From Coriobacteriales bacterium (GTDB lineage: Bacteria; Actinomycetota; Coriobacteriia; Coriobacteriales; UBA8131): 48,042 nt of DNA. Shown here piece after piece: positions 814 to 37,141 of the stretch; the stretch's first letter is position 1; the number at the start of each line of letters is the position of its first letter. The notes below the pieces were generated by a model. The model made no database searches. It saw only the letters and a list, made by a program, of their open reading frames with translations, and was not told the origin of the DNA. The DNA is taken from assembly GCA_031263025.1 (NCBI GenBank), contig JAISGO010000036.1, forward strand, positions 1 to 48,042, given 5' to 3'. The position numbers and the translations under genes were made by a program.

Positions 814-931
814 TGCGCAGGATATCCTGCCTTAGGCAGAGGGATGTCTTTTTGAGCGAGGGGAGTTACCTTGCGGTATCGACCGAGCGAGGAAAGCATC
901 GCGATCCAGCATAAGGCAGAATAGACAAGCA
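814..931 (+). repeat. Long-hairpin element, subtype A, diverged copy 1 (upstream of tRNA-Thr)
   Basis: TGCGCAGGATAT-cctgcctta...GGAGTTACCTTGCGGTATCGAC...taaggcaga-ATAGACAAGCA; arms ctgcctta/taaggcag are complementary. Confidence 0.85.
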
Positions 932-937
932 GAACGT

Positions 938-1013
938 GCCTGTGTAGCTCAGTAGGTAGAGCACATCGTTGGTAACGATGAGGTCACCGGTTCAAATCCG
1001 GTCGCAGGCTCCA
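938..1013 (+). tRNA. tRNA-Thr(GGT)
   Basis: Cloverleaf GCCTGTG...CGCAGGC-T-CCA; anticodon arm CATCG-TTGGTAA-CGATG; T arm GGTTCAAATCC. Confidence 0.97.
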
Positions 1014-1041
1014 TTTTTTTCAAGTTAGACAAGCAAAATAT

Positions 1042-1126
1042 GGGGGTGTGCCCGAGTGGTTAAAGGGGACGGGCTGTAAACCCGTTAGCTATGCTTACTA
1101 AGGTTCGAATCCTTACGCCCCCACCA
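1042..1126 (+). tRNA. tRNA-Tyr(GTA)
   Basis: GGGGGTG...CGCCCCC-A-CCA; anticodon arm ACGGG-CTGTAAA-CCCGT; long variable arm. Confidence 0.97.
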
Positions 1127-1195
1127 TTGAAGTTTGCCATGCAGTCTGAAAAACATCAGAGACTCAAGCAGTATTCCCAACCAGGTTAGTCCGGG

Positions 1196-1670
1196 TTGCG
1201 CCGGATATTTTGTTCCAGACAAGGAGACAAGATTTTTTGTGAAAGGAGTTACCTAGGCGGTAATGACTGAACAAAAAATCGCAGTCGACGCAGCATGGGA
1301 TGAAATAGACAAGCAAGGTTGCGTAGGATATTTTCGTTTAGACAAGAAGACAAGGAAAATCGCGCCGGGAGTTACCTTGCGGTATCGACCAAGCAATTTC
1401 CGCAGTGGCCTTGTATCGTGCAAGATAAGAAGTTATTGCGCAGGATATTTTCGTTTAGACAAGGAGACAAGGAAAATCGTGCCGGGAGTTACCTTGCGGT
1501 ATCGACCAAGCGATTTCCGCAGGGCCTTGTATCGTGCAAGATAAGAAGTTATTGCGCAGGATATTTTCGTTTAGACAAGGAGACAAGGAAAATCGCGCCG
1601 GGAGTTACCTTGTGGTATCGACCAAGCGATTTTCCGCAGTCGACGCAGTATAAACGAAAATAGACAAGCA
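1196..1670 (+). repeat. Tandem array of four subtype-A long-hairpin elements between tRNA-Tyr and tRNA-Met
   Basis: Units start TTGCG(C/T)(A/C)GGATATTTT at 1196, 1319, 1436 and 1552 (periods 123/117/116); each has GGAGTTACC-N4/5-GGTA(A/T)(T/C)GAC; units 2 and 3 are 3'-truncated and followed by a ~30-nt linker. Confidence 0.95.
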
Positions 1671-1675
1671 AGAAT

Positions 1676-1752
1676 GGCGGTGTAGCTCAGTTGGTCAGAG
1701 CACACGGTTCATACCCGTGGCGTCATTGGTTCGAATCCAATCACCGCTACCA
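1676..1752 (+). tRNA. tRNA-Met(CAT), elongator type
   Basis: GGCGGTG...CACCGCT-A-CCA; anticodon arm CACGG-TTCATAC-CCGTG; paired 1-72 and no GGG/CCC initiator stem. Confidence 0.93.
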
Positions 1753-1838
1753 AGTTCTACCACGGCCGCTACCTATTCGTTAGAATAGAGCTACAGCCTT
1801 TCATCTTTAGACCTTAATTATCTCATAGGAGGAAAACT

Positions 1839-3044
1839 ATGGCAGAAAAAGAACATTTCGACCGCAGTAAGCCGCATGTCAACATCGGCACCATCGGCCA
1901 CGTCGACCACGGTAAAACCACGTTGACGGCGGCCATCTCCAAGACCCTTTCGGAGAATGACGGCAGCCACGGCACCGCCACCGCCGACTACACTGCTTTC
2001 GAGGACATCGACAAGGCTCCCGAGGAGCGCGAGCGCGGTATCACCATCAGCATCGCCCACATCGAGTACCAGACCGACAAGCGTCATTACGCCCACGTTG
2101 ACTGCCCCGGCCATGCCGATTACGTCAAGAACATGATCACCGGTGCGGCCCAGATGGACGGCGCCATCTTGGTTATCGCCGCCACCGACGGCCCGATGGC
2201 CCAGACTCGCGAGCATATCCTGCTGGCCCGCCAGGTCGGCGTGCCCTACATCGTGGTCTTCCTCAACAAGTGCGATATGGTCGACGACGAGGAGCTACTC
2301 GAGTTGGTCGAGATGGAAGTGCGTGAGCTCTTGAGCTCCTATGACTTCCCGGGCGACGAGACCCCGATCATCCGTGGTTCGGCGCTTAAGGCCCTCGAGG
2401 GCGACAAGGATGCCCAGGACAAGATCTGGGACTTGATGGACACCATCGACGAGTACATCCCCACCCCCAAGCGCGACAACGAGAAGCCTTTCCTGATGGC
2501 GATTGAGGATATCTTCACCATCACCGGTCGCGGCACCGTGGCCACCGGACGTATCGAGCGCGGCGTGATCAAGGTCAATGACGAAGTTGAGATCGTCGGC
2601 ATCAAGGAGACCGAGAAAACGGTCTGCACCGGTGTCGAGATGTTCCGCAAGATCCTTGACGAGGGCGAGGCTGGCGATAACGTCGGCATCCTGCTGCGCG
2701 GTACCAAGCGCGAGGACATCATCCGCGGACAGGTGCTCTGTAAGCCCGGCAGCGTGACCCCGCATACCAAGTTCAAGGGCCAGGTCTACATCCTGACCAA
2801 GGACGAGGGCGGGCGCCACACCCCATTCTTCACCGGTTATCGTCCGCAGTTCTACTTCCGTACCACCGACGTCACTGGTGTGGTCGATCTGCCTGAGGGC
2901 ACCGAGATGGTGATGCCGGGCGAGAACGTCGAGATCACCGGCACCCTGATTCACCCGATTGCCATGGAAGAGGGCCTACGCTTCGCTATCCGTGAAGGCG
3001 GCCGCACCGTCGGCTCGGGCAAGGTTTCCGAGATCATCGAGTAA
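1839..3044 (+). CDS. tuf: Elongation factor Tu
   Basis: [43 protein letters not shown]; SD AGGAGG upstream. Confidence 0.99.
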
Positions 3045-3063
3045 AGGACATTCCATAGTCGAA

Positions 3064-3166
3064 GGGTTGTGTCGCAGGTTTGCTGCGGCACAACCCGGGC
3101 ACAGGATGAAAGTTTAGATGTGGCGAGCGTAATGCCACCCACGCGCTCGTCACATCTAAACTTTCA
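3064..3166. other. Two strong stem-loops between tuf and rpmG
   Basis: GGGTTGTGTCGCAG/CTGCGGCACAACCC (3064-3096) and TGAAAGTTTAGATGTGGCGAGCG/CGCTCGTCACATCTAAACTTTCA (3107-3166). Confidence 0.7.
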
Positions 3167-3198
3167 GAAACTGTGGAGAGAGTAAGAGAGAAGAGAAG

Positions 3199-3348
3199 AT
3201 GCGCAACCAGGTTACTATGGCTTGCACCGAGTGCAAACGCCGTAACTATACCACCACCAAGAACAAACAGCTCCATCCGGATCGTTTGGAGTTCAAGAAG
3301 TATTGTCCTTGGTGCAATACCCATACCCTGCATAAGGAGACGAGATAG
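3199..3348 (+). CDS. rpmG: 50S ribosomal protein L33 (Zn-ribbon form); too short for the ORF track
   Basis: Manual translation [49 protein letters not shown]; canonical position before tRNA-Trp-secE. Confidence 0.97.
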
Positions 3349-3358
3349 GGGAGAACAC

Positions 3359-3435
3359 AGGCCAGTAGCTCCAATTGGTAGAGCGGCGGTCTCCAAAACC
3401 GTTTGTTGGGGGTTCGAGTCCCTCCTGGCCTGCCA
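3359..3435 (+). tRNA. tRNA-Trp(CCA)
   Basis: AGGCCAG...CTGGCCT-G-CCA; anticodon arm GCGGT-CTCCAAA-ACCGT; lies between rpmG and secE. Confidence 0.97.
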
Positions 3436-3459
3436 ATTCTACTTAGCCCAAGATAAACT

Positions 3460-3882
3460 ATGGCACAGAAGAAACGTAGAAACAAACACAACAAGGCGAA
3501 TCCGAGCGACCAGGCCCAGGCCCAGCCGCAAGTCGGCGTTGCGCCCAAGTCCGCTGCGGCGGACAAGGAAGCGGTTAAGCCTAAACCAGCAGCTAAGCCT
3601 AAGGCGGACAAGAAAGCAAAACACCAGCCCTCTAAAGCTGAGCTGAAGGCAAAAGCTAAGCAAAAAGCCGAGAAGAAGCCCGGCATCTTCAGCCGGATCA
3701 TCAATTATTTCAAGGGCGTCAAGGGTGAGGTGATCCGTACTACTTGGCCGACCCGCCATGAGGTCTGGAATATGACCGTGATCGTGGTGGTAGCCCTGCT
3801 CTTCTTCGGTATCCTGATTTTCCTGCTCGACCAGCTGATGGTGGTCATCCTCAATTGGGCTAGTAGCCTGATGGGCTCTTAG
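3460..3882 (+). CDS. secE: Preprotein translocase subunit SecE with long Lys/Ala-rich N-terminus
   Basis: YFKGVKGEVIRTTWPTRHE motif followed by a single TM helix; upstream of nusG. Confidence 0.93.
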   Translation: MAQKKRRNKHNKANPSDQAQAQPQVGVAPKSAAADKEAVKPKPAAKPKADKKAKHQPSKAELKAKAKQKAEKKPGIFSRIINYFKGVKGEVIRTTWPTRHEVWNMTVIVVVALLFFGILIFLLDQLMVVILNWASSLMGS

Positions 3883-3895
3883 GCAGTAGGGCAGC

Positions 3896-4426
3896 ATGGC
3901 AAAACACTGGTATATCGCACACACGTATTCAGGCTACGAGAACAAGGTCAAGAGCGCGATTGAGCATCTGGCCGATAATCTCGGTCTGGCCGATCAGATC
4001 CGTAAGGTTGAGATTCCCACTGAGTCGGTGGTGGAGATCAAAGACGGCGGTGAGCGTATCCAGAAGGAGGCCAAGGTCTTCCCTGGTTATGTGCTGATCA
4101 GGGCCGAGATGACCAATGAGGTTTGGCAGGCCATCCGTAATATCGATGGCGTCTCCGGCTTCGTCGGCGCTGGCGGTAAGCCTGCGCCCCTTACCCACGA
4201 ACAATACAACAAGATCGCCAAGAAGACCGACCGCAAGGCCCCGACCAAGACCTCGGTATCTTTCAAGGTGGGTCAAGTGGTTAAGGTCACCGACGGCCCC
4301 TTTGCGGAGTTCGATGCGACTATCTCCGAAGTCAACGCCGAGACTGGTAAGATCAAGGTTCTGGTCTCCATCTTCGGCCGCGAGACCCCGGTGGAGCTTA
4401 ACTTCTCCCAGATCGTGAAGGTTTGA
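3896..4426 (+). CDS. nusG: Transcription termination/antitermination factor NusG
   Basis: [27 protein letters not shown] motif GPFAEF...[14 protein letters not shown]. Confidence 0.98.
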
Positions 4427-4528
4427 AAACCCGCTATTTGGCCGCTTTCGACCTTGTCAAGCCCTCTATTATCCTAGAGTAGCTGCAAATCTTGTCAAGA
4501 CTGAGCCCGACTCGAATATCGAGTTTTC
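4426..4528 (-). repeat. Long-hairpin element, subtype B, diverged minus-strand copy abutting the nusG stop
   Basis: Reverse complement gaaaactc-GATAT-tcgag...GCAGCTACTCTAGGATAATAGAG...gcggccaa-ATAG-cgggttttc aligns with the copies at 20297 and 21845. Confidence 0.7.
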
Positions 4529-4632
4529 GTTAAAATACAATGAGTCATTTACGCCGCCCGGGCCAGCCTGCTCAGCTTGTCTGGGGCTTCTCGGCGTGAG
4601 AGATATAGACAAACAGAGTTAAGGAAAAGACA

Positions 4633-5169
4633 ATGGCAAAGAAGATCGATAGCACTGCCAAGTTGCAGATCGAAGCCGGTAAGGCCACTCCGGCACCGCC
4701 CGTTGGCTCCATTTTGGGTGCCAAGGGCGTTAATATCCAACAGTTCGTTCAACAGTTCAATGCGCAGACCGCTGACATGGGCAACGACATTATCCCGGTG
4801 GCCATCACCATCTATGAGGATAAGACCTTTGATTTCGTGCTCAAGACCCCGCCAGCCGCCTATCTGATCAAACAGGCGCTAGGCCTTGAGCATGGCTCTG
4901 GTGAGCCGCATATCGAGAAGGTCGGCCAGCTCAGCAAAGACCAGTTGCGTGAGATCGCCGAGAAGAAGATGCCCGACCTCAACGCCAACGACATCGAAGC
5001 TGCGATGAAGGTCGTACAGGGCACCGCTCGTTCGATGGGTGTCCGGGTCGAAGGTGTTGCGGACACCGGCACTTATCTGCAGAAGCGCAAGAACATCGTC
5101 GAGGAAACGCTGCCAGAGGCCGCTGCGGACGAGGCAGCCGAGGGCGAGGCCGAAGCCGCCGCTGCATAG
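4633..5169 (+). CDS. rplK: 50S ribosomal protein L11 with C-terminal extension
   Basis: [43 protein letters not shown]. Confidence 0.98.
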
Positions 5170-5175
5170 ATTTAA

Positions 5176-5216
5176 TGTATCAAAGGAGTGTATCAAATGA
5201 AACGTCCCTTTGATAC
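5176..5216. repeat. TGTATCAAA...TTTGATAC palindromic unit (REP-like), also at 14521-14670
   Basis: TGTATCAAATGAAACGTCCCTTTGATAC (5189-5216) versus TGTATCAAATGAAACGGGCCATTGATAC (14640-14667). Confidence 0.6.
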
Positions 5217-5233
5217 GTCCAATAAGGAAAATC

Positions 5234-5265
5234 GTAGCAGGGCCCTTGACAGCCCGTTTAACTAC
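5234..5265 (+). promoter_or_regulatory. Putative L1 autoregulatory mRNA structure upstream of rplA
   Basis: GTAG-CA-GGGC-ccttgaca-GCCC-GTTTAA-CTAC: two stems with an asymmetric internal loop just before the rplA SD; resembles actinobacterial L1-binding sites. Confidence 0.55.
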
Positions 5266-5285
5266 AAGTTCGAAAGGAACCTACC

Positions 5286-5966
5286 ATGTCAAGATTGACC
5301 AAGAAGCAAAAAGCTTACGCTGAGAAGTGGGACAAGCATGCTTTCTATCCGGCGGAGCAGGCAGTCGCCTTGACCAAGGAGCTAGCCAGCGCCAAGTTCG
5401 ATGAGACCATTGAGGCCCATTTTCGTCTAGGTATCGACACCCGCCAAGCCGACCAGCAGATCCGCGGCTCGATTTCCCTGCCCAACGGCACCGGCAAGAC
5501 CGTGCGAGTGGCCGTCTTCGCAGAGGGCGCCGAGGCCGACGCCGCTATTGAGGCAGGCGCCGATCTGGTGGGCTCGGATGATCTGATCAGCCAGATCCAA
5601 GGTGGCATGCTCGACTTTGACGCTACTGTAGCCACGCCGGCGATGATGCCGAAGGTCGGTAAACTCGGTCGTATCCTCGGCACCCGTGGCCTGATGCCCA
5701 ATCCCAAATTGGGCACGGTGACCAATGAAGTCGCCAAGATCGTGGGTGAGCTCAAGGCTGGCCGGGTCGAGTATCGTGCAGACAAGTTCGGTATCTGCCA
5801 TGTGCCGATCGGCAAGGCCTCCTTCGAAACCGAACAGCTGCTTGGCAACTACACCGCCCTCTATGATGAGATCGTTCGGGTCAAGCCGGCTTCGGCTAAG
5901 GGGCGCTATATCAAGTCGATTGTGCTGGCTTCGACGATGGGCCCTGGCGTAGCGGTGGAAATTTAG
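5286..5966 (+). CDS. rplA: 50S ribosomal protein L1
   Basis: [45 protein letters not shown]. Confidence 0.99.
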
Positions 5967-6000
5967 AGCAGGTCGCTCTTACGCAAGAAAAGCTCCAAGG

Positions 6001-6022
6001 GGGACAGCTTGCAAGCTGTCCC
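6001..6022. terminator. Perfect palindrome between convergent rplA and mtaB
   Basis: GGGACAGCTTG/CAAGCTGTCCC; no adjacent U-tract. Confidence 0.45.
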
Positions 6023-6066
6023 TGTGGGGGATTTAGGCTATCTAGCGGAAGCGAATGACAAAAAAG

Positions 6067-7248: not shown

Positions 7249-7339
7249 TATCGCAGGATTATACCAGCATGCGTAGACGACGTTTTCACTGCTCCCTTTA
7301 GATGGCCCCGGATTTCCCCAAAAGCCTTATACTGCAAGG

Positions 7340-7768: not shown

Positions 7769-7777
7769 GGAAGATCT

Positions 7778-10729: not shown

Positions 10730-10740
10730 GAGGGGGCGTC

Positions 10741-11409: not shown

Positions 11410-11414
11410 GGCCG

Positions 11415-14520: not shown

Positions 14521-14670
14521 TCTATCAAAGGAATCTTTCATTTGAACATTCAGCCTTTTAAGGCACGGGCGATTGTCAAACGCCTGGCAACTTGAAAATC
14601 GCCTGTGCCTTAAAAGGCTCCTCTGGGCCATATGTTCAATGTATCAAATGAAACGGGCCATTGATACATT
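14521..14670. repeat. REPIN/MITE-like inverted structure
   Basis: Inverted T.TATCAAA..TTGA units at 14521-14550 and 14638-14670 enclose a 23-bp stem (14552-14574/14597-14619). Confidence 0.6.
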
Positions 14671-20253: not shown

Positions 20254-20258
20254 GGTGC

Positions 20259-20400
20259 TGCTGTAAAGCCAAAATGTGCCAAATAGCTAACCCCCCAAAA
20301 ACAGATATTTGAGTGCAGTCTGGTCTTTGCAGCATAGCGAGGATACCTAGTCGGTACCGAGCAGTGCTGTAAAGCCAGAATGTGCCAAATAGCTGTTTTT
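20259..20400 (+). repeat. Long-hairpin element subtype B: 3'-half copy (20259-20288) plus full copy (20297-20400)
   Basis: aaaaacaGATATttgagtgca...GAGGATACCTAGTCGGTACCGAG...tgtgccaaATAGctgttttt; the half copy matches 20365-20394 at 29/30. Confidence 0.88.
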
Positions 20401-21685
20401 ACACGGCGATGTGGAAGCGGAAGACGATATAGACCCCCGCGATCGCCACCGAGACCAACATCAAAGGGAAACCGACCCGCATGTATTTGAGGAAACTAAT
20501 GGGGTAGCCTTTCTTGTTGGATATACCCGAGAGCACCACGTTGGCCGAGGCGCCGATCAAGGTGCCGTTGCCACCTAGGCAGGCCCCGATAGAAAGCCCC
20601 CACCACAGCGGATGAACGTCGATGCCCATCGCGCCCATACTGGTCAAGACCGGGATCATGGCGGCGACGAAGGGGATGTTGTCGAGGAAGGCGCTCACTA
20701 CTGCGCTGACCACCAGGACCGCCACCAAGGCGAGGATTTCCTGGCCTTGGGCAAGATGCACTAGCTCCTGGGCCAACATGTTGAGCACTCCTGTATGCGA
20801 CATCGCTCCGACGATGATGAAGAGGCCGGCGAAAAAACCGATTGTCGTCCACTCCACTTCATGGATGATCTTCTCGATGTCCTGGCGCCCGATCACCAGC
20901 ATTACCCCGCCGGCGCTGAGAGCTACGACCCCGGACTCGATACCGAGGCTGCCGTGGAGGAGGAAAGCTGCGATTATGAGTATGATCATCACGATGCTCT
21001 TGAAGAAGAGCGGCTTACTCTTGATTGATTCGCCGGGATCGAGCTGGGTGAGCAGGCGGGCGTCGTCAGGTGACACTTTGAGCTTGCGCCCGTAGAGGAA
21101 GTAGAAGCAGATGATGGTGACTGCCAAGATGACGATCACGATGGGGGCGTTGTAGTTGAGGAAGTCGAGGAAATCATAGTGTGACTGGCTGCCGATCATG
21201 ATGTTGGGAGGGTCGCCGATCATGGTGGCCGTACCGCCGATGTTGGAGGCCATGATCTGCGAGATGAAGAATGGTATCGGTGAGGTCTTCATCTCACGAC
21301 AGAGCATAAAGGTCATCGGCCCGACCAAGAGTACGGTAGTGACGTTGTCAAGGAAAGCCGAGAGTACAGCGGTCACGATAATCAAGAACATCATGATCCG
21401 CCAAGGGTGACCATGGGCCAATTTGGCCGCCCAAATCGCAGCGTATTCGAAGAGGCCCGACTCCTTGGCCACTGCCACGAAGATCATCATTCCAATCAAG
21501 ACAGCCAAGGTATTGAGATCCATCGGGGAGGGATTGGCCACGGCTTCGTCAAAGGGTAAAAGCCCGCTCAGCATCACCACACAGGCGCCGATCATGGCCA
21601 CTGTGGTGCGGTGCATCTTCTCTGAGATGATTACCCCCATCACGGCAACGAAAATGAGGATGGAGGCTATTTGAGGGGCAGTCAT
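20399..21685 (-). CDS. ArsB/NhaD-family (IT superfamily) ion permease
   Basis: SAFLDNVTTV, SNIGGTATMIGDPPN, SAFLDNIP, GACLGGNGTLIGASANVV; about 11-12 TM. Confidence 0.9.
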   Translation of the reverse strand: MTAPQIASILIFVAVMGVIISEKMHRTTVAMIGACVVMLSGLLPFDEAVANPSPMDLNTLAVLIGMMIFVAVAKESGLFEYAAIWAAKLAHGHPWRIMMFLIIVTAVLSAFLDNVTTVLLVGPMTFMLCREMKTSPIPFFISQIMASNIGGTATMIGDPPNIMIGSQSHYDFLDFLNYNAPIVIVILAVTIICFYFLYGRKLKVSPDDARLLTQLDPGESIKSKPLFFKSIVMIILIIAAFLLHGSLGIESGVVALSAGGVMLVIGRQDIEKIIHEVEWTTIGFFAGLFIIVGAMSHTGVLNMLAQELVHLAQGQEILALVAVLVVSAVVSAFLDNIPFVAAMIPVLTSMGAMGIDVHPLWWGLSIGACLGGNGTLIGASANVVLSGISNKKGYPISFLKYMRVGFPLMLVSVAIAGVYIVFRFHIAV

Positions 21686-21754
21686 AGCCCTTTTATCTTA
21701 CCCCTTTGGCGCAGCTTAGGCTGAACAGCAATGGTTGTGGAAAGCCCTGAAAAC

Positions 21755-21784
21755 GCAGGGGACACTCTATAGAGTGTCCCCTGC
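21755..21784. repeat. Perfect 30-bp palindrome
   Basis: GCAGGGGACACTCTA/TAGAGTGTCCCCTGC. Confidence 0.8.
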
Positions 21785-21794
21785 ATGGGTTGCT

Positions 21795-21948
21795 GAGGCG
21801 TACAGCAAAGGCCGAATGCGCCAAATAGCCTCTCAAAAGCCTGTAAAAGCAGATATTTGAGCGCAGTTGGAGCTTTGCTGTACGCCGAAGTTACCTGGTC
21901 GGTATCGAGGGGTACGGCAAAGGCCGAATGCGCCAAATAGCTGTTTTT
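21795..21948 (+). repeat. Long-hairpin element subtype B: 3'-half copy (21795-21829) plus full copy (21845-21948)
   Basis: aaaagcaGATATttgagcgca...GAAGTTACCTGGTCGGTATCGAG...tgcgccaaATAGctgttttt; the half copy matches 21907-21941 at 33/35. Confidence 0.9.
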
Positions 21949-23947
21949 ACTTGCTGCCTGCCTCGCGCTTGGCCTGATAGTCTGCGGCCATCTTCTGCTG
22001 CACCTCGGCCGGCACTTCTTCGTAGCCGGTCAAAGAGAGGCTATAAGAACCCAAACCGCGGGTCAGTTGGCGCAGGTCGCGGGCGTAGGTGATGACTTCT
22101 TTGTAAGGGACGCTGGCGGTGACTACAGAGTTGCCCTGGGAGTCGCTGGACATGTTCGAGATCTTGCCGCGCTTGGTGGTGAGGTCGCCCATCACCGCGC
22201 CGCTGGCGGACTCCGGGCAGGTCACCTCGAGGGTGGCGACTGGCTCCAACACGTAGGGGGCGGCGTCTTTACAGGCATTGCGGAAGGCCAGACGGCCAGC
22301 TGACTTGAAGGCCATCTCGTTGGAGTCGACTGGGTGGTAGGAACCGTCGTAGACAGCGGCCTTGACGTCGATCATCTGGTTGCCGGTGAGGAAGCCCTCG
22401 GCCATCGCCTCCTGGATGCCTTTGTCCACTGCCGGGATCAGACCGCGTGGGATATGGCCGCCGGTCACCTCGTTGACGAACTCATAGCCCAGGCCCGGGT
22501 TGGGCTCGAGGCGGACGTAGCAGTCACCGTACTGGCCGGCGCCGCCGGTCTGCTTCTTATGTTTGCCCTCGGCCTGGGCGGTCTTGCGGATGCTCTCGCG
22601 GTAGGCGATCTTGAACTCGAGGATGTTGATATCGACCTTGAGGCCGCTTCTGACCTGGTCGAGGATGGCCTTAGTGGCGCCTTCGCCCAGGGTGTAGAGG
22701 ACGGTCTGGTGGGTCTGGGGGTCGCGCACCAGCTTGACGCAGGGATCGAGCTCGGCCTGCTTCTCGAGGAACTCAAAGAGCTTATCGTCATTTTTCTTGT
22801 CGGCGGCTTCAAGCGCGGTGGGGTAGAGCGGCTCCGGCGTCTTGGGCGGCACCACCGCGACCTTGCCGGACGCCGAGAGGCTGTCGCCAGTGTGCACGTC
22901 AGCCAGCTTGGGGAAGATCACGATGTCGCCGGCGGCGGCCTCCGGTATGTCCGTGGTCTTGGCCCCATCCAAGGTCTGTACCCGGCTGATATGCTCCTTC
23001 TTGCCGCTGGCGGCGTTGCCGAGCTCCGCGCCGGCTTTGACCGTGCCTCCCAGCATCTTGGCGAAGCTGATATGGCCGAGGAAGGGGTCGGAGGCGGTCT
23101 TGAAGATATAGGCAGAGGTCTCGGCGTTGGCGTCGACGCTCATGCTCTCGCCGCCAGCCAAAAAGAAGGGCCCATGTGCGTCGGGTGTGGGAAAGTAGGT
23201 GATGACCTGCTCGAGAAAGCCGATCAGGCCCTGCTCAATCACGGTCGAACCGACGAAAGAGGGGATGAAGATCCCCTGGGTGATGGCCTTGCCAAGCAGG
23301 CTCTCCAGTTCGGTTTGGCTGAGCTGTTCGTTGCCGTCGAGGTATTTCATCATTAGCTCGTCGTCGGCCTCGGCCACCAGATCCAACAGTTTGTCGCGGG
23401 CGGCCTGGGCCCGTTCAAGGTATTCGGCCGGGATCTCCTCGGTGGTCTCCTTGCCGCCTGTGTGGTAGCGGGCCACCATGTTGATGATGTCGATGATGCC
23501 CTTGAAGTCCGTGCCCTGGCCAATCGGCATAGTCACCTGGCCGACCCGGCTACCGAATTTCTCAGCCAAGACGTCGATGGCGTGCTGGTAGTCAGCGCCC
23601 TCTTTGTCGATGTGGTTAATGAAGAAAGAGCGGGCGAGCTGCTCCTTGTCTGCCATGTTGTAGAGCTTGAGGGTGTTGACCTTGGGGCCATCCACGGCGT
23701 CGACTACGAAAGTAGCCATCTCGCAAGCTTCGGTGGCGAAGATGGTGTCGCCGATGAAATCATCGGCCCCGGAGGTATCGACCAGGTTGATCTTATGGTC
23801 TTTATATTCGATCGGCGCGAAGTCGAAACCAAACTTGTCCGACTTACCGCACACCCGCAAAAGCCCCTCGACCAGCGAAGTCTTGCCGGCCCCGTCGCTT
23901 CCCACGAGGGCGATGTTGCGGATCTTGTCTGTCGTATATGCGGGCAT
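21947..23947 (-). CDS. Elongation factor G paralog (EF-G2/FusA2-like) with atypical G domain
   Basis: IRNIALVGSDGAGKTS, IAYRESI, KHKKQTGGAGQYGD, YDGSYHPVDSNEMAFK, VMGDLTTKRGKI. Confidence 0.92.
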   Translation of the reverse strand: MPAYTTDKIRNIALVGSDGAGKTSLVEGLLRVCGKSDKFGFDFAPIEYKDHKINLVDTSGADDFIGDTIFATEACEMATFVVDAVDGPKVNTLKLYNMADKEQLARSFFINHIDKEGADYQHAIDVLAEKFGSRVGQVTMPIGQGTDFKGIIDIINMVARYHTGGKETTEEIPAEYLERAQAARDKLLDLVAEADDELMMKYLDGNEQLSQTELESLLGKAITQGIFIPSFVGSTVIEQGLIGFLEQVITYFPTPDAHGPFFLAGGESMSVDANAETSAYIFKTASDPFLGHISFAKMLGGTVKAGAELGNAASGKKEHISRVQTLDGAKTTDIPEAAAGDIVIFPKLADVHTGDSLSASGKVAVVPPKTPEPLYPTALEAADKKNDDKLFEFLEKQAELDPCVKLVRDPQTHQTVLYTLGEGATKAILDQVRSGLKVDINILEFKIAYRESIRKTAQAEGKHKKQTGGAGQYGDCYVRLEPNPGLGYEFVNEVTGGHIPRGLIPAVDKGIQEAMAEGFLTGNQMIDVKAAVYDGSYHPVDSNEMAFKSAGRLAFRNACKDAAPYVLEPVATLEVTCPESASGAVMGDLTTKRGKISNMSSDSQGNSVVTASVPYKEVITYARDLRQLTRGLGSYSLSLTGYEEVPAEVQQKMAADYQAKREAGSK

Positions 23948-27554: not shown

Positions 27555-27579
27555 CAGCACCTATGGCTGTTTTCCCTGT

Positions 27580-30284: not shown

Positions 30285-31057
30285 AAGTCCAGCCGGGTCG
30301 CGATCCCGCAGGCAGCCAGGTGTTCTTTGACTTGGCGAATCGAGAGCTCTCCGAAGTGGAAGAGCGAGGCGGCCAGGACCGCGTCGGCGTGCCCCTCTTT
30401 GATTGCTTCCGAGAAGTCCGTCAAGCGTCCTGCGCCGCCGGAGGCGATTACAGGGATGTCGATCGCGTCGGCGACCGCCCGGGTCAAGACGAGGTCGAAG
30501 CCGGCTTTCGTGCCGTCGGCATCCATCGAAGTCAGTAGGATCTCCCCAGCTCCAGCAGATGCTGCCTGGCGGGCCCAGGCTACGGCGTCAAGTCCGGTGT
30601 CCTCACGGCCGCCGTGGACGAAAACCGTCCAACGAGGCTCACTGTCCTGCCCGGTCACCCTTTTAGCATCGATCGCGCAGATCACCGCCTGGCTGCCGAA
30701 AGCCCTTGCTGCCGCGCTGATCAGGTCGGGGTCGGCGACGGCGGCGGAGTTGAGCGACAATTTATCGGCGCCGGTTGTGATCATCTCTTGCATGTCCTTG
30801 AGATCATGGAAGCCGCCGCCCACTGTGAAGGGGATATCCAGTTCACGGGCTGCCCGCCCGGCGAGTTCGATGGTGGTGCGCCGGCGCTCGGCCGAGGCAG
30901 TGATATCGAGGAAAACGACCTCGTCTGCGCCAGCCGCCGAATAGGCGGCGGCGAGTTCGATCGGGTCGCCGGCGTCACGCAGGGAGACGAAGTTGACCCC
31001 TTTGACCACGCGGCCGTCTTTTACGTCGAGGCAAGGTATGACTCTTTTGGTGAGCAT
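30281..31057 (-). CDS. hisF: Imidazole glycerol phosphate synthase cyclase subunit
   Basis: [61 protein letters not shown]. Confidence 0.98.
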
Positions 31058-31147
31058 CGCTTTCTATGATAGCGGGTGTCTGGCCGGGTTTTGGCGAAGG
31101 AGCAAAAGAGACTCAGGTCTGTGTGCCCTGGGCTTGATCAGGCACAG

Positions 31148-31188
31148 GATAAGGAAAGGGCAGCCTGAGCGGCTGCCCTTTCCTTATC
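31148..31188 (-). terminator. Stem-loop downstream of the AAA+-like gene
   Basis: GATAAGGAAAGGGCAGCC/GGCTGCCCTTTCCTTATC 18-bp stem. Confidence 0.7.
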
Positions 31189-31206
31189 GAATCCGAGTTT
31201 TGATCT

Positions 31207-32727
31207 TTAGATTAAGTGGTCAAGCGAGTCGGCCAAGCGCCGTTCTAAATAACGCTCGTTTTGGCGGTAGGTGGCACTATCCGACCTGATGTACTCTAAG
31301 CAGTGTACGAGGATATCCTCAAGGTTCAACATCTGATAATGTTTGCTGCTCAAGCTGTTCTGATAAGCCTCATCAGAGGCGCTCTGGCAAGCCTTGAGCA
31401 GATCCCGCCGACCGATGCCACGGGTCATGAAAGCGAGCTTGGCGATGTCAACCTGCTTGAAAGCCGGATGATGCTCAGCGAAGCTGTGCAGCAGGAAGCG
31501 CCGGCAGGCCAGGTCGGGATCGGCCACCTCGATCAGTTGATAGTCGCCGATTGCGTCGGTCAACAATTCGCCTACCGCTGAGGCGTCGGTGGCGGTCGCA
31601 ATGATGAAAAGGTCAGATTGGGATTTCAACATCTTGATACGGAGCAGGATGTCGTCGCGCATCGCATCGAGGTCTTCCGGGTCAACTGTCTTCTTGGAGC
31701 CGAAAGGGGAAAGCCCCTCTTGTGGGTCGTCATCGGGCATGCTTAGGTCGCCGTCGAAGAGGCGCTGCATCAAGTCGACGTTCTGCAATACCAGCAAGGC
31801 TGGGGAGGGTATCTGGTTGGAGGGAAAGACGCCGAAAGGAGTCTTCACGGTCGGCCCCCACTCTTTGATGGTGCCTAATCCTTGTTCGTCTAACTCTGCC
31901 CCGATTTGGAACGTCGGCCAGTCGATCTCGCCACAGGTCGCCCAGGCGAAGCTGTTCAGGTCATCGCGGCAATTGCCTCTGAAGAAGAAAGGCTTGGTCA
32001 GCACCGGCCCGTTGGCTCCGTGGTAGCTTTCGGTCTGCTTGAGGAAATCCGCGAAGCGTTGGCTACCGGCATGGGCGAAGCCGAAACGCTGCATCTCGGC
32101 CAAGGGCTGGTCGAAGCCCTGGAGGTCAAGGTAGTTGAAACGATGGTGACGGGATTCTTGGTGGCGCTTGTGTTTGGGCTTGGTTTTGCTCGGTAGCGGC
32201 AGTTTGACCTCATAGGCCTGGATACGCGTGCCGTCTTGGCGGGTGATCTGGCCGCGCAGGATCGGGCCCTCCGCGTCCGTCTCTTCTGTGTGCGCGTTAT
32301 CGTCGTGGTCGGTATCGTTCAGACCGAGGTCGCACAGACGTTCCCAGACCTCGTCCGGCAGTTCTTCTTTCAAGGCCTCGGTTAACTCATCGAGTTGGTC
32401 AGTGTCTACACCCTGCTCTTTGAGCTGGTCAATCGCCATTTTGCGCAGGTCGGAGACCTGCTTCTCGATCTCTTCCGGGGAAGAGAAAGGCTCAAGGTCG
32501 TCGAAGATGGTCTCGGCGGTCGAGCGGTCGCTGTGCTTGCAGGCCAAAAGCCAGGCTGTGTGCAGGCCGTCGATCACCCGTTTGGAGGGCACCGGCTGGG
32601 CCTGTTCAGCCAAATCGAAAGCCGCCAAGTAAAGGTGTACCGCAAGGCTGTCCTGTCCGGCCTTGACGGCTTCGTCGGCGTGATCCAGGTAGTTGGCAAG
32701 TTTTATCAGATTATTGTCAAAAGCCAT
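31207..32727 (-). CDS. Hypothetical protein: helical N-domain, acidic linker, degenerate AAA+ ATPase-like C-domain
   Basis: FNYLDLQGF; PFFFRGNCRDD (Walker A position); PALLVLQNVD (Walker B position); LFIIATAT; IEVADPDLACRR; VDIAKLAFMTRGIGRRDL lid. Confidence 0.6.
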   Translation of the reverse strand: MAFDNNLIKLANYLDHADEAVKAGQDSLAVHLYLAAFDLAEQAQPVPSKRVIDGLHTAWLLACKHSDRSTAETIFDDLEPFSSPEEIEKQVSDLRKMAIDQLKEQGVDTDQLDELTEALKEELPDEVWERLCDLGLNDTDHDDNAHTEETDAEGPILRGQITRQDGTRIQAYEVKLPLPSKTKPKHKRHQESRHHRFNYLDLQGFDQPLAEMQRFGFAHAGSQRFADFLKQTESYHGANGPVLTKPFFFRGNCRDDLNSFAWATCGEIDWPTFQIGAELDEQGLGTIKEWGPTVKTPFGVFPSNQIPSPALLVLQNVDLMQRLFDGDLSMPDDDPQEGLSPFGSKKTVDPEDLDAMRDDILLRIKMLKSQSDLFIIATATDASAVGELLTDAIGDYQLIEVADPDLACRRFLLHSFAEHHPAFKQVDIAKLAFMTRGIGRRDLLKACQSASDEAYQNSLSSKHYQMLNLEDILVHCLEYIRSDSATYRQNERYLERRLADSLDHLI

Positions 32728-32835
32728 GGCAGAGCCCCCAATAATTATAAAATAATGCTTCCATTATAGACCAATCGAGCAGCGTGGGCACAAGCGTTAC
32801 CAAGCGGACAACAAGGCCCTGCCAAAGGCCTAAAA

Positions 32836-34104
32836 TCAGCCGATGCGCCGGACTTTCGCGCCGAGGCCGGTGAGCTTCGCGCAGAGGTCTTGATAGCCCC
32901 GGTCGATATGGTGGACGTTGCTGACTATGGTGTCACCCTCGGCGACCAAGCCGGCTAGCACCAAAGCCGCGCCGCCGCGTAAATCAGGTGCCTGCACTGG
33001 GGCGCCGGAAAGCGCCGTTACGCCCTTGATGGAAGCGATATTGCCATAGGTCGAGACCCGTGCGCCCATCCGGTTGAGCTCATCGGCAAGCATGAAACGG
33101 TTTTCGAAGATGGTCTCCTCGATCCGGCTTTCTCCGTCAGCAAGGCTGCAGAGCACCATGAAAAAGGACTGTGCGTCTGTGGGAAAGCCGGGATAGGGGA
33201 GGGTCTGTAGGGTGGTCGCAGCAAGCCTACCGCGTCTGGCCACGGTGATGCTGCGCTCGCCACAGACGATCTGCACCCCCATCCGACTGAGCTTTTGCAG
33301 GGGGTTGCGCAGATGGTCTGGATCCACTCCGGTGACCGTGACCGGACCACCGCAGAGGGCGCCAGCTGCTATGTAAGTGCAGGCTTCGATGCGGTCGCCG
33401 ACCACTTCGTAGTCCTTAACCGGATGCAAACGGGCGCCGCCGGTGATCTTTAGGGTGCCAGGCAGGCTGGCATCGATCGGGGCGCCCATCCTTTGCAGGA
33501 AGTGCACAAGGTCGCCGATCTCCGGTTCGCGCGCGCAGTTCTCCAGGGTGGTCACGCCGTCCGCACAAGTCGCCGCCATCAGGAGGTTCTCGGTCGCGCC
33601 TACGCTCGGGCCGGGTAGGCGGATGTGGGCCGCGCCCAGGCCGTTTGCCGGGGCGCTGGCGTCCATGTAACCGTGTTCGAGCTCGAAGCGCGCCCCCATC
33701 GCCTCCAGGCCGCGGATATGCATGTCAAGTTTGCGGCTGCCGATTTGACAGCCGCCCGGCATTGCCACCTTGGCTCGCCCGGTACGTGCCAAAAGCGGGC
33801 CGAGCACGGCGGTCGAGGCGCGCATCTGCGAAACCAGCTCATAGGGTGCCTCAAAGCCGGTGAGGGCGCTACTGTCGATCTCGAGGCGTCCGCGGTCGTG
33901 CTTGACCTGTGCGCCCAAGCCGCGTAGCAGGTCGGCCATCACCTTGGTGTCGGCGATCTGGGGGACGTTGTGGAGGCTATGTTGGCCCGGGCAGAGCAGG
34001 CAAGCGGCCATCAATTTCAAAGCGGAGTTCTTGGCGCCTTCGACCTTGACTGCGCCGCTTAGGCTGCGACCGCCGTGGATGATAATCGTGGGTTCAGTTC
34101 GCAT
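32836..34104 (-). CDS. murA: UDP-N-acetylglucosamine 1-carboxyvinyltransferase
   Basis: [21 protein letters not shown] (Cys present), [29 protein letters not shown]. Confidence 0.98.
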
Positions 34105-34151
34105 AACTTAGATTATAGCGGGTGGCGCCCGGCTGTCGCCTAAAACTGAAA

Positions 34152-34301
34152 ACGATGCTGCATAGGACAAATAGACAAACAAAAGCTTGGAGTCGATTCT
34201 TCAGATATCCCGAGTAGAAATCGCTTTGACTGACAGCGCAGTTACCTTAAGGGTAATAAGCTGACAGGCAGAGCGATTTATGCCGGGATAGTTGAAGAAT
34301 C
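34152..34301 (+). repeat. Long-hairpin element: subtype-A 3' remnant (34152-34184) plus full diverged copy (34195-34301) abutting the tRNA-Thr CCA end
   Basis: gattcttcaGATATcccg...aaatcgctttg...GCAGTTACCTTAAGGGTAATAAG...cagagcgattt...cgggATAGttgaagaatc; remnant gatgctgcataggacaaATAGACAAACA. Confidence 0.82.
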
Positions 34302-34377
34302 TGGAGCCAGCGAAGGGACTCGAACCCATGACCGCCTGATTACAAATCAGATGCTCTACCAACTGAGCTACGCTGGC
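34302..34377 (-). tRNA. tRNA-Thr(TGT)
   Basis: Reverse complement GCCAGCGTAGCTCAGTTGGTAGAGCATCTGATTTGTAATCAGGCGGTCATGGGTTCGAGTCCCTTCGCTGGCTCCA. Confidence 0.97.
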
Positions 34378-34387
34378 CCATTGATAC

Positions 34388-34395
34388 ATTATAAT
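34388..34395. promoter_or_regulatory. Overlapping divergent -10 hexamers (ATTATAAT) serving tRNA-Thr and pheT
   Basis: TATAAT on + at 34390-34395 (7 nt before the pheT ATG) and on - at 34393-34388 (10 nt before the tRNA 5' end). Confidence 0.65.
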
Positions 34396-34402
34396 TTATC
34401 TC

Positions 34403-36913
34403 ATGAAAGTATCCTTGAAATGGTTGAAGACCCTGGTCGCGTTGCCGGAACTGAAAAACGCGGCTGACCTCCGGAAATTCACAGACCGACTCGATTTGAC
34501 CGGAACCGCGGTGGATGGCGTGATCGACGTCGGCGGCGGTTTCAGTGGTGTGGTGGTCGGACAGATCGCCGAGCGCGAGCCGCATCCGAATTCGGATCAC
34601 ATGTGGCTCTGCCGGGTAGACGTAGGTTCGGTCAACCTCGGCGCAGACGGGCAGCCAGAGCCGCTGCAGATCGTTTGCGGCGCCCAGAACTTCGCAGCCG
34701 GCGACAAGACGGCGGTTGCCATGATCGGTGCTGAGCTGCCGGGCGGAGTCAAGATCAAGAAGTCCAAGCTACGTGGCATCGCCTCCTGTGGCATGAATTG
34801 CTCCGAGCGCGAGCTCGGCCTTTCCGACGAAGCCTCCGGTATCATGATCCTGCCGCCGGACGCGCCGCTGGGCCAACCCCTGGCCGATTACCTCGGCCAG
34901 CACGACACCGTGCTTGACCTGGAGATCACCCCCAACCGCCCAGACTGCATGAGCGTGCTGGGCGTGGCCCGGGAGGTCGCAGCGGTCTATGACGAGCCCT
35001 ACCGCCTACCCGAGCTTGCGGAGCTGCTGGAAAGTGATGAACAACCCGCCTGTTATCCTGAACTTGATTCAGGATCTCCTGCAGAAAATACCGCCGGCAA
35101 CGCCGCCGACCTTATCGACGTGACCATCGATGATGTGGCCCTTTGCAGCCGCTACACCGCCCGTCTCATCAAAAACGTCAAAGTCGGGCCTTCTCCTGCT
35201 TGGCTGGCCGAACGGGTCGAGGCCTGCGGCACCCGTTCAATCAATAATATCGTCGACGTCACCAACTACATCATGTATGAACTGGGCCAGCCTCTGCATG
35301 CCTTTGACTATGACACTTTGACCAAGGGCGCCGACGGCAAGGTTCACATTGTGGTGCGGGCCTCGGGCGAAGGGGAGAAATTCACCACCTTGGACGGCAT
35401 CGAGCGTGAGCTCAACCCGGACATCGCCGCCATCGTTGACGGCAATGCCGCCGCTGGAGCGGGGCAGACCGTCTGCCTCGCAGGCGTGATGGGCGGCCTC
35501 AACAGCGAAGTTACCGAGCACACCACCAATATCCTGCTTGAGGCGGCGGCTTTTGACCCCGGTCATTCCAGCCGCACTTCGCGCTCGCTGAAGCTCTTCA
35601 GCGAGGCATCACAGCGCTACGAACGCGGCGTTGATGCCGCGACTTGTGCTGACTTCAGCCTACGCGCCGCTCAGCTGATGGCGGCGGTGGGCGGTGGCAG
35701 CCTCTGTGCGGGCTTAGTTGATGTCTACCCGACGCCGCAGCCGACCTATGACCTCGATCTCGACCTGGCCTGGTTTGATGCTTTCATCGGCGCGGAGATT
35801 CCCGCCGCCGACGTCCAAAGCATCCTCGAGCGCCTCGGCTGTGTGGTCAAAGACGCCGGCGAGCGCCATCTTCAGGTGCAGACGCCGACCTTCCGGCCGG
35901 ATCTGCCCCGGGCGGTCGATTTGGCCGAGGAGGTGCTGCGCATCTGGGGAATGTCCCGGGTCGAAGCCACCCTGCCGGGCGGGCGCGGACGGGTCGGACA
36001 GATCTCCCGGGAAAGCCGGATCGAGCAGCGGATCGGTGAACTTCTGCGCGCTTCCGGGCTCTCTGAGACCATGACCTACGCTTTCGTCGAACCGGGCGAC
36101 ATGGCCAAGCTGCGCATGCCCCTGGCCGAGCAGAGCAAACAGGTCGAGCTGCTCAACCCGATTGTCGCCGACGAATCGGTGTTACGCCAGAGCTTGATCC
36201 CAAACCTATTGAAGAGCGTCACCTACAACCAAAACCACGGCACAGACCAGGTTTTACTCTACGAGCTTGACCGGGTCTTCGTTGCCAAGGCCGGACGCAA
36301 GCTGCCCAAGGAGCGCAAGCTGGTGGCAGGCGTGATCTGCGGCGACGGTCTCGACTTCTTCGATGCCAAAGGTGTGGTTGAGGGAATTCTCGCCCATCTC
36401 GGCATCGTCCAGGTCGCTTTCAGCCCGACCGAGCTGGCCTGGCTTCAGCCCGGGCAGGCAGCCGAGGTCAAAGGCCAAGGGGGGCCGGTCTTTGGCTGGG
36501 TCGGCCAGATTCATCCTTTGGCCGCGCAGGCTTTTGGCTGCTCCGGCTCCGTATTCGCTTTCGAACTAGAATTGAACGCGCTGATCAAAGCCGCTCACGA
36601 GGTCAAGGAGGTGCGCTCGCTCTCGGATTATCCCGAAGTCGCGCTCGATTTGGCGGTGGTGGTACCAGATGAGGTCAGTTTCGCCGACCTACATCAGGCC
36701 ATCTTCAAATTTGGTGGCAGCCTGCTCAAGTCAGCCGAGCTCTTCGACGTCTTCAGCGACCCGGCTAAGCTGGGCGCAGACAAGAAATCGCTCGCCTTCA
36801 ACCTCAGCTTCGGCGCCGACGACCACACCCTTACCCAAGATGCCGCTGAAGAGCAGCTCGCTCGCATCGTCAAGAAGCTGAACAAACAGTTCGGCGCCGA
36901 ACTGCGCCACTGA
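34403..36913 (+). CDS. pheT: Phenylalanine-tRNA ligase beta subunit
   Basis: MKVSLKWL, HPNSDHM, QIVCGAQN, LEITPNRPD, INNIVDVTNY..ELGQPLHAFD, RYERGVD, C-terminal FDX-ACB. Confidence 0.98.
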   Translation: MKVSLKWLKTLVALPELKNAADLRKFTDRLDLTGTAVDGVIDVGGGFSGVVVGQIAEREPHPNSDHMWLCRVDVGSVNLGADGQPEPLQIVCGAQNFAAGDKTAVAMIGAELPGGVKIKKSKLRGIASCGMNCSERELGLSDEASGIMILPPDAPLGQPLADYLGQHDTVLDLEITPNRPDCMSVLGVAREVAAVYDEPYRLPELAELLESDEQPACYPELDSGSPAENTAGNAADLIDVTIDDVALCSRYTARLIKNVKVGPSPAWLAERVEACGTRSINNIVDVTNYIMYELGQPLHAFDYDTLTKGADGKVHIVVRASGEGEKFTTLDGIERELNPDIAAIVDGNAAAGAGQTVCLAGVMGGLNSEVTEHTTNILLEAAAFDPGHSSRTSRSLKLFSEASQRYERGVDAATCADFSLRAAQLMAAVGGGSLCAGLVDVYPTPQPTYDLDLDLAWFDAFIGAEIPAADVQSILERLGCVVKDAGERHLQVQTPTFRPDLPRAVDLAEEVLRIWGMSRVEATLPGGRGRVGQISRESRIEQRIGELLRASGLSETMTYAFVEPGDMAKLRMPLAEQSKQVELLNPIVADESVLRQSLIPNLLKSVTYNQNHGTDQVLLYELDRVFVAKAGRKLPKERKLVAGVICGDGLDFFDAKGVVEGILAHLGIVQVAFSPTELAWLQPGQAAEVKGQGGPVFGWVGQIHPLAAQAFGCSGSVFAFELELNALIKAAHEVKEVRSLSDYPEVALDLAVVVPDEVSFADLHQAIFKFGGSLLKSAELFDVFSDPAKLGADKKSLAFNLSFGADDHTLTQDAAEEQLARIVKKLNKQFGAELRH

Positions 36914-36935
36914 GCTGTCTTGTGGGCTTCTTCTC

Positions 36936-37141
36936 TATTTGAGTGCGCTTGGGTCTTTGCAGCACGCCGAAGTTGCCTAGCCGGTAATGAGGGGTGCAAC
37001 AATCCTGGCAACAGCTATCGAGATAATGCGATGTCTTTCTTTTATTATTCGGATGCAGTTGAGGTAAGCGACAGGGCGAAGTTTACTAGGGTAAATGAGC
37101 GCTGGCGCGAACCCCAAATGCGCCGAATAATAAAAGAAAGA
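36936..37141 (+). repeat. Long-hairpin element subtype B: truncated copy (36936-37002) plus full diverged copy (37034-37141)
   Basis: Apices GAAGTTGCCTAGCCGGTAATGAG (36969) and GAAGTTTACTAGGGTAAATGAG (37078); perfect 19-bp basal stem TCTTTCTTTTATTATTCGG/CCGAATAATAAAAGAAAGA. Confidence 0.82.

Follow-up and report, generated by a model that had tools for sequence, protein, structure and literature searches.

Among described bacterial repeats, the closest to the elements reported here are REPINs, inverted doublets of REP (repetitive extragenic palindromic) units, which with their spacer form a long hairpin and in which compensatory changes, tandem clusters and decayed singlets are common (available portion of PMC3116915). 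Here we analyze a family of hairpin elements found in a 48,042-nt stretch of DNA from a Coriobacteriales bacterium (contig JAISGO010000036.1 of assembly GCA_031263025.1; hereafter the window) and dispersed through the rest of that genome. It is a real, well-structured and lineage-restricted repeat family. We consider the chances roughly even that it is a REPIN-like non-autonomous element that is handled as a folded single strand and that secondarily gives its neighbor genes a long 3′ hairpin. A sequence-only reading of the window had proposed a single-stranded DNA hairpin of REP-like kind, which we judge reasonable.

In the REPIN and RAYT system of Pseudomonas fluorescens SBW25, as in the family described here, two conserved inverted ends form a long hairpin (~100 nt), the spacer between them is less conserved and carries compensatory changes, extragenic copies number tens to hundreds, tandem clusters, decayed halves and lineage restriction are found, and the genome carries RAYT-like genes (PMC3116915, available portion). 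The REPIN anatomy as that portion gives it (PMC3116915) is also what our alignment of copies and our pair counts display. GTAG and CGTC REPs resemble the family in sitting chiefly downstream of coding regions, where the neighboring genes are unidirectional or convergent, in having several types per genome with dimers that fold larger and, for GTAG REPs, in repeat termini that often supply the stop codon, whereas they are 20–40 bp units with a GTAG or CGTC head and the elements here measure ~108 nt (available portion of PMC3733652). Hairpin-forming interspersed repeats of ~100–150 nt are also known from Streptococcus pneumoniae (BOX, RUP and SPRITE) and from Neisseria (Correia elements). Of these, SPRITE resembles a terminator and is enriched at 3′ ends that converge, and co-transcription can affect RNA stability (PMC3049150, in the portion available). 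The family differs from these elements in its absence of target duplication, its strand asymmetry and its fixed orientation to the abutted gene. [quoted passage not shown] Integron attC sites, such as the Vibrio cholerae repeats, are imperfect hairpins of ~60–140 nt that are recognized as folded single strands, that conserve structure more than sequence and whose structured strand is antisense to the open reading frame (ORF) with its stop codon at the site; unlike attC, the family shows no cassette array and no R or L boxes, and its neighbors are core genes and tRNAs.

The genome is a 1.39-Mb assembly of 58 contigs (58% G+C, 89.5% complete), in which the window is contig C44. A profile search (nhmmer) of the contigs returned 66 matches at E < 0.001 plus weaker partial ones. 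A covariance model (R1; 108 positions and 38 pairs), built from 33 aligned copies (alignment A2), returned 88 matches at E ≤ 0.01, 14 of which are the reverse strand of loci already counted. The family therefore comprises ~74 distinct loci on about 35 contigs, with a copy length of ~108 nt made up of a ~90-nt core and a ~9-bp outer stem. All 11 copies listed in the sequence-only reading were recovered by R1 or nhmmer; among its three 3′-half copies, those at 20255–20289 (+) and 21794–21831 (+) are real, while the one at 34152 is weak. The copies in the window are thus members of a single, lineage-specific family of short interspersed repeats that do not code for protein.

The family is restricted to this genome among those searched. 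None of 40 relatives (24 of the same family but other genera and 16 of the same order; 51–100% complete) has a match. In contig collections, the apex pattern occurs once each in eight genome and eight metagenome contigs from unrelated organisms, none of which extends past the apex under R1, and blastn found no match to the family in phage and plasmid records. When the window was compared with Rfam 15, as the earlier reading had suggested, only five tRNAs reached gathering scores, and no match listed at E up to 5 coincides with any full copy. A sub-threshold match to NsiR9 at 21691–21808 (21.5 bits, gathering score 90; E 2.4) spans a palindrome and the start of the 21794–21831 remnant. A single sequencing run, a termite gut metagenome, holds the window stretch, and no RNA run is among the holders; the suggestion that similar repeats come from gut Firmicutes is doubtful. 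For EF-Tu, the closest clusters in the atlas belong mostly to Actinomycetota, which gives a lead and no more.

The commonest form, type B, consists of the outer stem, GATATTTGAGTGCAG.., a variable middle stem and the apex (..GAAG-TTACC-loop-GGTAT-CGAG..), followed by the middle-stem complement, ..ATGYGCCAAATAGC and the outer stem again. The core ends are conserved (GATATTTGAG.. at the 5′ side and ..CCAAATAGC at the 3′ side) and pair with each other with one A-G mismatch; this basal GATAT/ATAGC pairing and the conserved apex, both described earlier, are visible in alignment A2. The apex hairpin is nearly invariant (TTACC / GGTAW, with G-A mismatches on its flanks) and is the best conserved part, and the middle stem covaries and splits into sub-families. 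Type A has a lower stem unlike that of type B and shares its foot and apex; it occurs in the window's tRNA operon and also precedes a 16S start and an S4-like gene. More sub-types adjoin tRNAs and coding sequences (CDSs). Several non-Watson-Crick features are conserved: the A-G mismatch at the foot, T-G and G-T pairs at columns 21-94 and 22-93, G-A mismatches below the apex stem and, inside that stem, one position that is either T-T or T-A. Most copies in alignment A2 have GCAG where REPs have GTAG, which is present in only some.

The stems are maintained by compensatory change, as the earlier reading of a true family with covarying stems had held. Across 33 type B copies, 93.3% of cells form standard pairs, compared to 69.1% when shuffled, with none of 500 shuffles reaching the observed value, and compared to 33–40% when each position is set against a slid partner. 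Both sides have changed in 34 of the 38 pairs, and the covariation score is 0.649 versus 0.195. All of these copies are paralogues from one genome, which makes the shuffle control exaggerate the signal; the slid control is free of that problem. Compensatory changes are also present in 19 of 37 pairs of the type A copies (n = 6).

The fold favors one defined strand, which we call the motif strand. Among 50 near-full copies, it folds better than its complement in 44 (mean minimum free energy of −54.3 versus −45.6 kcal/mol; Wilcoxon P = 1.6e-7), and its R1 score is about twice that of the complement (for example, 113.8 versus 51.1 bits at C11:11868). Counting non-independent cells, the 38 pairs hold 95 G-T versus 30 A-C, and 54 versus 29 once three wobble-rich pairs are removed; the locus-specific outer stem has 18 versus 8 on the same non-independent basis. 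Pairs 21-94 and 22-93 hold 19 and 13 G-T cells, respectively, and zero A-C cells. The preference for one defined strand proposed from the window is thus supported.

The elements are placed at gene ends in one orientation. Genes were called by a greedy longest-ORF rule and tRNAs by ARAGORN, which found 40 tRNA genes, and a copy was termed flush when its motif-strand 3′ end lay −15 to +10 nt from the 3′ end of an opposite-strand feature. Of the 74 loci, 64 were counted, the other 10 being omitted because another copy is their 3′ neighbor. By this definition 45/64 copies are flush, at 35 CDSs and 10 tRNAs (10 of the 40 tRNA genes), and a gene lies within 20 nt of the motif 5′ end in only about six copies. 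Read in the sense of the gene, 19 of 25 scorable cases have the core starting 3–8 nt past the stop codon, and the outer stem contains that codon; at tRNAs the hairpin begins at the CCA end. Orientation is therefore tightly tied to the neighboring gene, contrary to the earlier statement that the motif strand is independent of host transcription. Type A copies are instead in the sense direction, about 10–23 nt upstream of tRNA-Thr, tRNA-Met, a 16S start and an S4-like gene, the distance to tRNA or 16S starts being 10–12 nt.

By comparison, in 871 element-free genes the starts of hairpins of at least 7 bp are spread evenly over 0–24 nt after the stop codon, which shows that the flush position is a property of the element; general terminators, considered as pre-existing targets, therefore do not account for it. 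The abutted CDSs end in TAA more often than the rest (22/35 versus 339/911 genome-wide; Fisher P = 0.002). NusG has the same end as its orthologues in 11 of 12 relatives, and thus the nusG gene, which is abutted by the 4423–4529 (−) copy, has not been truncated. The position of copies relative to replication, another check proposed earlier, gave no signal when read from GC skew within 8 kb (38/74 copies positive), in an assembly too fragmented to place the replication origin and terminus.

We found that the outer stems do not follow the cores that they enclose. Over 528 copy pairs, middle-stem identity correlates with the identity of the conserved part (rho = 0.39), but not with that of the 9–10 bp outer stem (rho = −0.002), and middle stems that are 95% alike can carry unrelated outer stems. 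At every locus, the two arms of the outer stem are nonetheless complementary to each other (93% paired in helix 1). The exception is a pair of identical 108-nt copies, C13:46842–46949 (−) at tRNA-Arg(acg) and C43:37173–37280 (+) at tRNA-Lys(ttt), which have the outer stem and the tRNA 3′ end in common. Entry of the core into a short inverted repeat, inverted copying of the gene-side flank, or homogenization of cores by conversion may each account for the locus-specific outer stems. With hairpin boundaries taken from RNAfold, which are noisy, no direct repeat of at least 3 nt flanks any of 65 copies, and 2-nt repeats flank 4/65 (3.3 expected).

Partial copies, by our sorting, are about 19 that are 5′-truncated and keep the 3′ half versus 5 that are 3′-truncated. 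Ten remnants lie 2–24 nt 5′ of a full copy, and six of the ten are most similar to that neighbor. Within arrays, the gene-adjacent copy has the best outer stem, and some array neighbors come from different sub-families (for example, C1:77929 and C1:78038). In several copies, a GGGGACAC..GTGTCCCC palindrome takes the place of the 5′ arm. As a separate observation, this palindrome forms a family of its own, (C)GGGGACAC-YYTATARR-GTGTCCCC(G), which is perfect, is present at about 41 loci genome-wide (about 21756–21791 in the window) and often sits between an A-run and a T-run, resembling a bidirectional terminator.

Under the REPIN-like reading, the element would be copied or moved as the folded motif strand, and a protein would read the conserved non-Watson-Crick features of that strand. 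Insertion would proceed without direct target duplication and would leave the motif 3′ end flush with the 3′ end of an opposite-strand gene, at its stop codon or at the CCA end of a tRNA. The transcript of the neighbor would then end in the complement of the element, a long hairpin that is mostly bracketed by an A-run and a T-run, which points to a terminator or 3′ stabilizer; the element probably serves the abutted genes in that role. Mobility itself, the single-stranded intermediate, the enzyme and any effect at the RNA level are inferences. The family also departs from REPINs in that the apex, and not the ends alone, is best conserved, and in that a locus-specific outer stem clasps the core. 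Moreover, it sits flush at gene 3′ ends in one orientation, whereas SBW25 doublets are randomly distributed extragenically in the available portion of PMC3116915.

No cognate enzyme lies in the window, in agreement with the sequence-only reading, but the genome has genes for two RAYT-like proteins of the Y1 HUH type, 252 and 261 amino acids long (C21:5477–6235 (−) and C26:2873–3658 (+)). They are paralogues with 52% identity and helix-turn-helix-like C-terminal tails, scoring 51 and 46 bits on PF01797 (cut-off 23) and 71.5 and 73.2 bits on NF047646 (under its cut-off of 80). Each gene has its own short hairpin repeat on both sides (GCCAAAAGGGGACAGG.. for the C21 gene and TATCAAAGGGACGTTTCA.. 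for the C26 gene); genome-wide, these patterns match about 78 and 61 times, respectively. Three window segments (5189–5216, 14521–14548 and 14640–14667) are copies of the repeat that flanks the C26 gene. An 8-mer, TGCCAAAT, is common to the element 3′ arm and a RAYT-flanking repeat; it occurs 130 times in the genome versus about 43 expected, mostly inside the repeats themselves, and was judged too short to count. The assembly being 89% complete, another RAYT gene could be missing from it.

Domain searches of the genome found three tyrosine recombinase genes but no reverse transcriptase, TnpB-type domain, DDE_3 or DDE_Tnp_1; transposase-type matches are limited to two weak ones to rve and some of IS110 type, in an incomplete assembly where insertion sequence (IS) elements often fail to assemble. 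One 447-amino-acid tyrosine recombinase gene, C33:30388–30975 (−), ends flush with the hairpin copy C33:30205–30310, and tRNA-Val(tac) lies about 170 nt from that copy, which may mark the edge of an integrated element.

Several findings weigh against the REPIN-like reading. In this assembly no enzyme is tied to the family. A RAYT gene flanked by its own repeats, as a REPIN system would have, is not what we found: the long hairpin is absent from the flanks of both RAYT-like genes, its nearest copies being 2 and 4.3 kb away. A third RAYT-like ORF, C9:13177–13821 (214 amino acids, 31% identical over residues 12–142), was set aside, as its HUH histidines and catalytic Tyr motif appear lost and no hairpin copy is nearby. 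RAYT homologues are present in 13 of the 40 relatives, all of them without the hairpin family. We know of no HUH mechanism that explains either the flush placement or the locus-specific complementary outer stems, and conversion between old hairpins is another possible source of like cores inside unrelated outer stems. In 51/74 copies the structured strand runs antisense to the majority of nearby genes; if genes here are mostly co-directional with replication, this is the opposite of the strand reportedly active in IS200/IS605 elements.

The searches for movement add to these points. Neither the contigs of the run that holds the stretch, probably the source sample, nor two runs from the same study contain an empty site (a form without the element), and the family turned up in no second genome among the 40 relatives and the contig collections; consequently, we infer movement rather than observe it. 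Hairpins with an AATAG loop, which might be excision footprints, number 17 compared to a mean of 18.9 for permuted loops, which is no enrichment. Three sets of candidates were rejected: apparent joints in the runs were cross-mapping of other copies and not empty sites, the nusG downstream regions of three relatives are too diverged to serve as empty sites, and hairpins with a GATAGC, GATATAGC or GATAG loop, sought as unoccupied targets, gave 0–4 matches that all appear to lie in genes. Separately, a small hairpin at C53:3112–3141 (C53:3122) is flush with a stop codon and has as its AATAG loop the last core bases; its 10-bp stem resembles the outer stem of the C11:11868 copy. This is the only case that looks like a solo site, and it may represent either a target without an element or a footprint left by excision.

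An unlikely but serious alternative is that the elements are cis-acting RNA modules, namely terminators, 3′ stabilizers or RNase processing sites, with type A acting as a leader or processing hairpin, and that they spread by duplication or conversion. The placement fits, in that 45 of 64 copies begin within a few nucleotides of a stop codon or CCA end and type A copies precede tRNA-Thr, tRNA-Met, a 16S start and an S4-like gene by 10–23 nt in the sense direction. Structured RNA commonly holds G-U pairs and G-A mismatches, and about half of the 33 aligned copies have an outer stem in which an A-run faces a T-run, as in a bidirectional terminator. At outer-stem columns 3–7, A-U is the most frequent pair (13–20/33 copies), with U-A in 6–11/33. 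However, these 6–11 T-first outer stems, many of them at tRNAs, would place an A-run and not a U-run after the hairpin on either strand. For type B, moreover, the transcript of the neighbor contains the complement, the worse-folding strand in 44 of the 50 copies, which would have A-C at the conserved G-T pairs 21-94 and 22-93. The absence of the family from 40 relatives argues that this is not a conserved function, no Rfam family matches, and a simple terminator scan that allows short loops only did not flag the elements.

We regard as rather improbable a variant of the REPIN-like reading in which the insertion chemistry itself is undescribed: a folded single strand would be delivered to gene 3′ boundaries, in one orientation, by an enzyme not yet linked to such repeats, with an inverted copy of the ~9 nt beside the gene, and not a direct target duplication, becoming the outer stem; the boundaries would include stop codons as well as tRNA CCA ends.

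Less probable again is a classical MITE of the Correia, BOX or RUP kind, moved by a DDE transposase into TA, with the hairpin representing its terminal inverted repeats. The arms are indeed long imperfect inverted repeats, the core starts ..TAT and ends ATA.., many outer stems begin and end in TA, and BOX gives a stop codon to 36 CDSs (PMC3049150, available portion). But the target duplication is missing (0/65 copies with at least 3 nt and 4/65 with 2 nt versus 3.3 expected, noisy boundaries included), the 89.5%-complete assembly has the two weak rve matches, those of IS110 type and no DDE_3 or DDE_Tnp_1, and outer stems do not travel with their cores. A double-stranded mechanism also leaves the strand asymmetry and the fixed gene orientation unexplained. 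No parent IS with matching ends was found in this incomplete genome, the 5′-end matches outside the known copies being two short remnants only.

We give similarly little credence to a family of old, immobile gene-end hairpins whose cores were homogenized by gene conversion that left the outer stems untouched. Conversion would suit the uncorrelated core relatedness and outer-stem identity (rho = −0.002), the identical pair at two tRNAs whose identity runs into the tRNA 3′ end, and the 6 of 10 remnants closest to their adjacent copy, but it gives no account of some 74 hairpins in one lineage and none in 40 relatives, of mixed-sub-family arrays such as that at C1:77929 and C1:78038, or of the excess of 5′-truncated copies. 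Finally, attC-like folded sites for a tyrosine recombinase, in which the structured strand would be the bottom strand, antisense to the ORF ending flush with it, are highly improbable: attC sites do span a length like the ~108 nt here and combine conserved structure, variable sequence and fixed unpaired bases, and three tyrosine recombinase genes are present, but the copies are dispersed over many contigs by core genes (nusG, the EF-G paralog and tRNAs) with no cassette array, alignment A2 has no boxes of the GTTRRRY/RYYYAAC consensus, and two of the recombinases appear Xer-type by score and the third is tRNA-adjacent and prophage-integrase-like, in a comparison that used no integron-integrase-specific model.

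If the family is mobile in the REPIN-like manner, REPIN-like elements would extend to an uncultured termite-gut lineage. It would also combine a protein-site-like apex, a strict flush rule and locus-specific stem extensions, three features not reported together in our literature comparison, which was not aimed at proving this. If the insertion-chemistry variant is true, the element would be a self-spreading, portable gene-end hairpin that has reached a quarter of the tRNA genes. The placement raises a testable question, namely what it is that reads the 3′ boundaries of genes in the DNA itself. Some 45 genes and tRNAs with the same long hairpin at the transcript end are a natural set for work on termination and 3′ processing, in a lineage for which no genetics exists. 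Should the copies prove to be ordinary decayed repeats, they would amount to a well-characterized new repeat family and little beyond.

The copies of the window are collected in Table 1; the names of the genes beside them (pheT, the EF-G paralog, the CitMHS transporter, nusG and rplK) were checked. Six copies have fold z-scores between −6 and −9.2, and those at 1325, 1442, 36926–37020 and 4486 (−) fold no better than shuffles when taken alone.

Table 1. Hairpin copies and remnants in the window, with their neighbors and search scores
Positions (strand)	Form	Context	R1	nhmmer	Fold z
822–925 (+)	Full, type A	Ends 12 nt before tRNA-Thr(ggt)	36.9 bits	819–930, E 2.4e-09	−3.0 (814–930)
1202–1315 (+)	Full, type A	First in tandem run of four, between tRNA-Tyr and tRNA-Met		E 2.8e-11	−6.0
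1325–1392 (+)	3′-truncated type A; 5′ arm and apex only			Positions 14–75, E 8.6e-06	−0.1
1442–1510 (+)	3′-truncated type A			Model positions 14–76, E 4.2e-06	−1.9
1558–1670 (+)	Full, type A	About 6–10 nt before tRNA-Met(cat)		E 3.1e-09	−6.5
4423–4529 (−)	Divergent copy	nusG-rplK spacer; 3′ end overlaps nusG stop codon by 4 nt	51.7 bits, E 4.7e-8		−1.3
20255–20289 (+)	5′-truncated remnant; 3′ arm only	Closest relative is the next full copy, which this remnant precedes by 8 nt		Model positions 73–106, E 0.005	
20295–20403 (+)	Full, type B	Between convergent genes; 3′ end overlaps stop codon of CitMHS transporter gene (20399–21685, −) by 5 nt	101.5 bits		−9.2
21794–21831 (+)	5′-truncated remnant	Preceded by palindrome at about 21756–21791; 7 nt upstream of next full copy, its closest relative		Model positions 69–106, E 0.001	
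21843–21951 (+)	Full, type B	3′ end overlaps stop codon of EF-G paralog (21947–23947, −) by 5 nt	106.8 bits		−7.8
34152–34185 (+)	Possible type A 3′-end remnant (weak)	Local alignment score 19 to 1270–1316	No match	No match	
34195–34302 (+)	Full	3′ end overlaps CCA end of tRNA-Thr(tgt) (34302–34377, −) by 1 nt	81.2 bits		−7.2
36925–37031 (+)	Decayed; 3′ arm lost	11 nt past pheT stop codon, sense to pheT	31 bits, E 0.003	36936–37004, E 5.4e-09	−0.07 (36926–37020)
37035–37141 (+)	Full; TTTAC/GTAAA apex variant	Tandem with 36925–37031 copy; followed by separate GC-rich hairpin at 37137–37174	93.8 bits		−8.2

Two further observations concern the surroundings of the window copies. The motif TAGACAAGCA occurs at 922–931, 1026–1035 and 1661–1670, as well as at 4606 and 34172; it lies 15–16 nt before the starts of tRNA-Thr, tRNA-Tyr and tRNA-Met, and tRNA-Tyr has no hairpin copy. 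A promoter scan marked TAGACA-17 nt-TATTTT at 1306–1334 and TAGACA-17 nt-GACAAT at 4606–4634, the latter before rplK.

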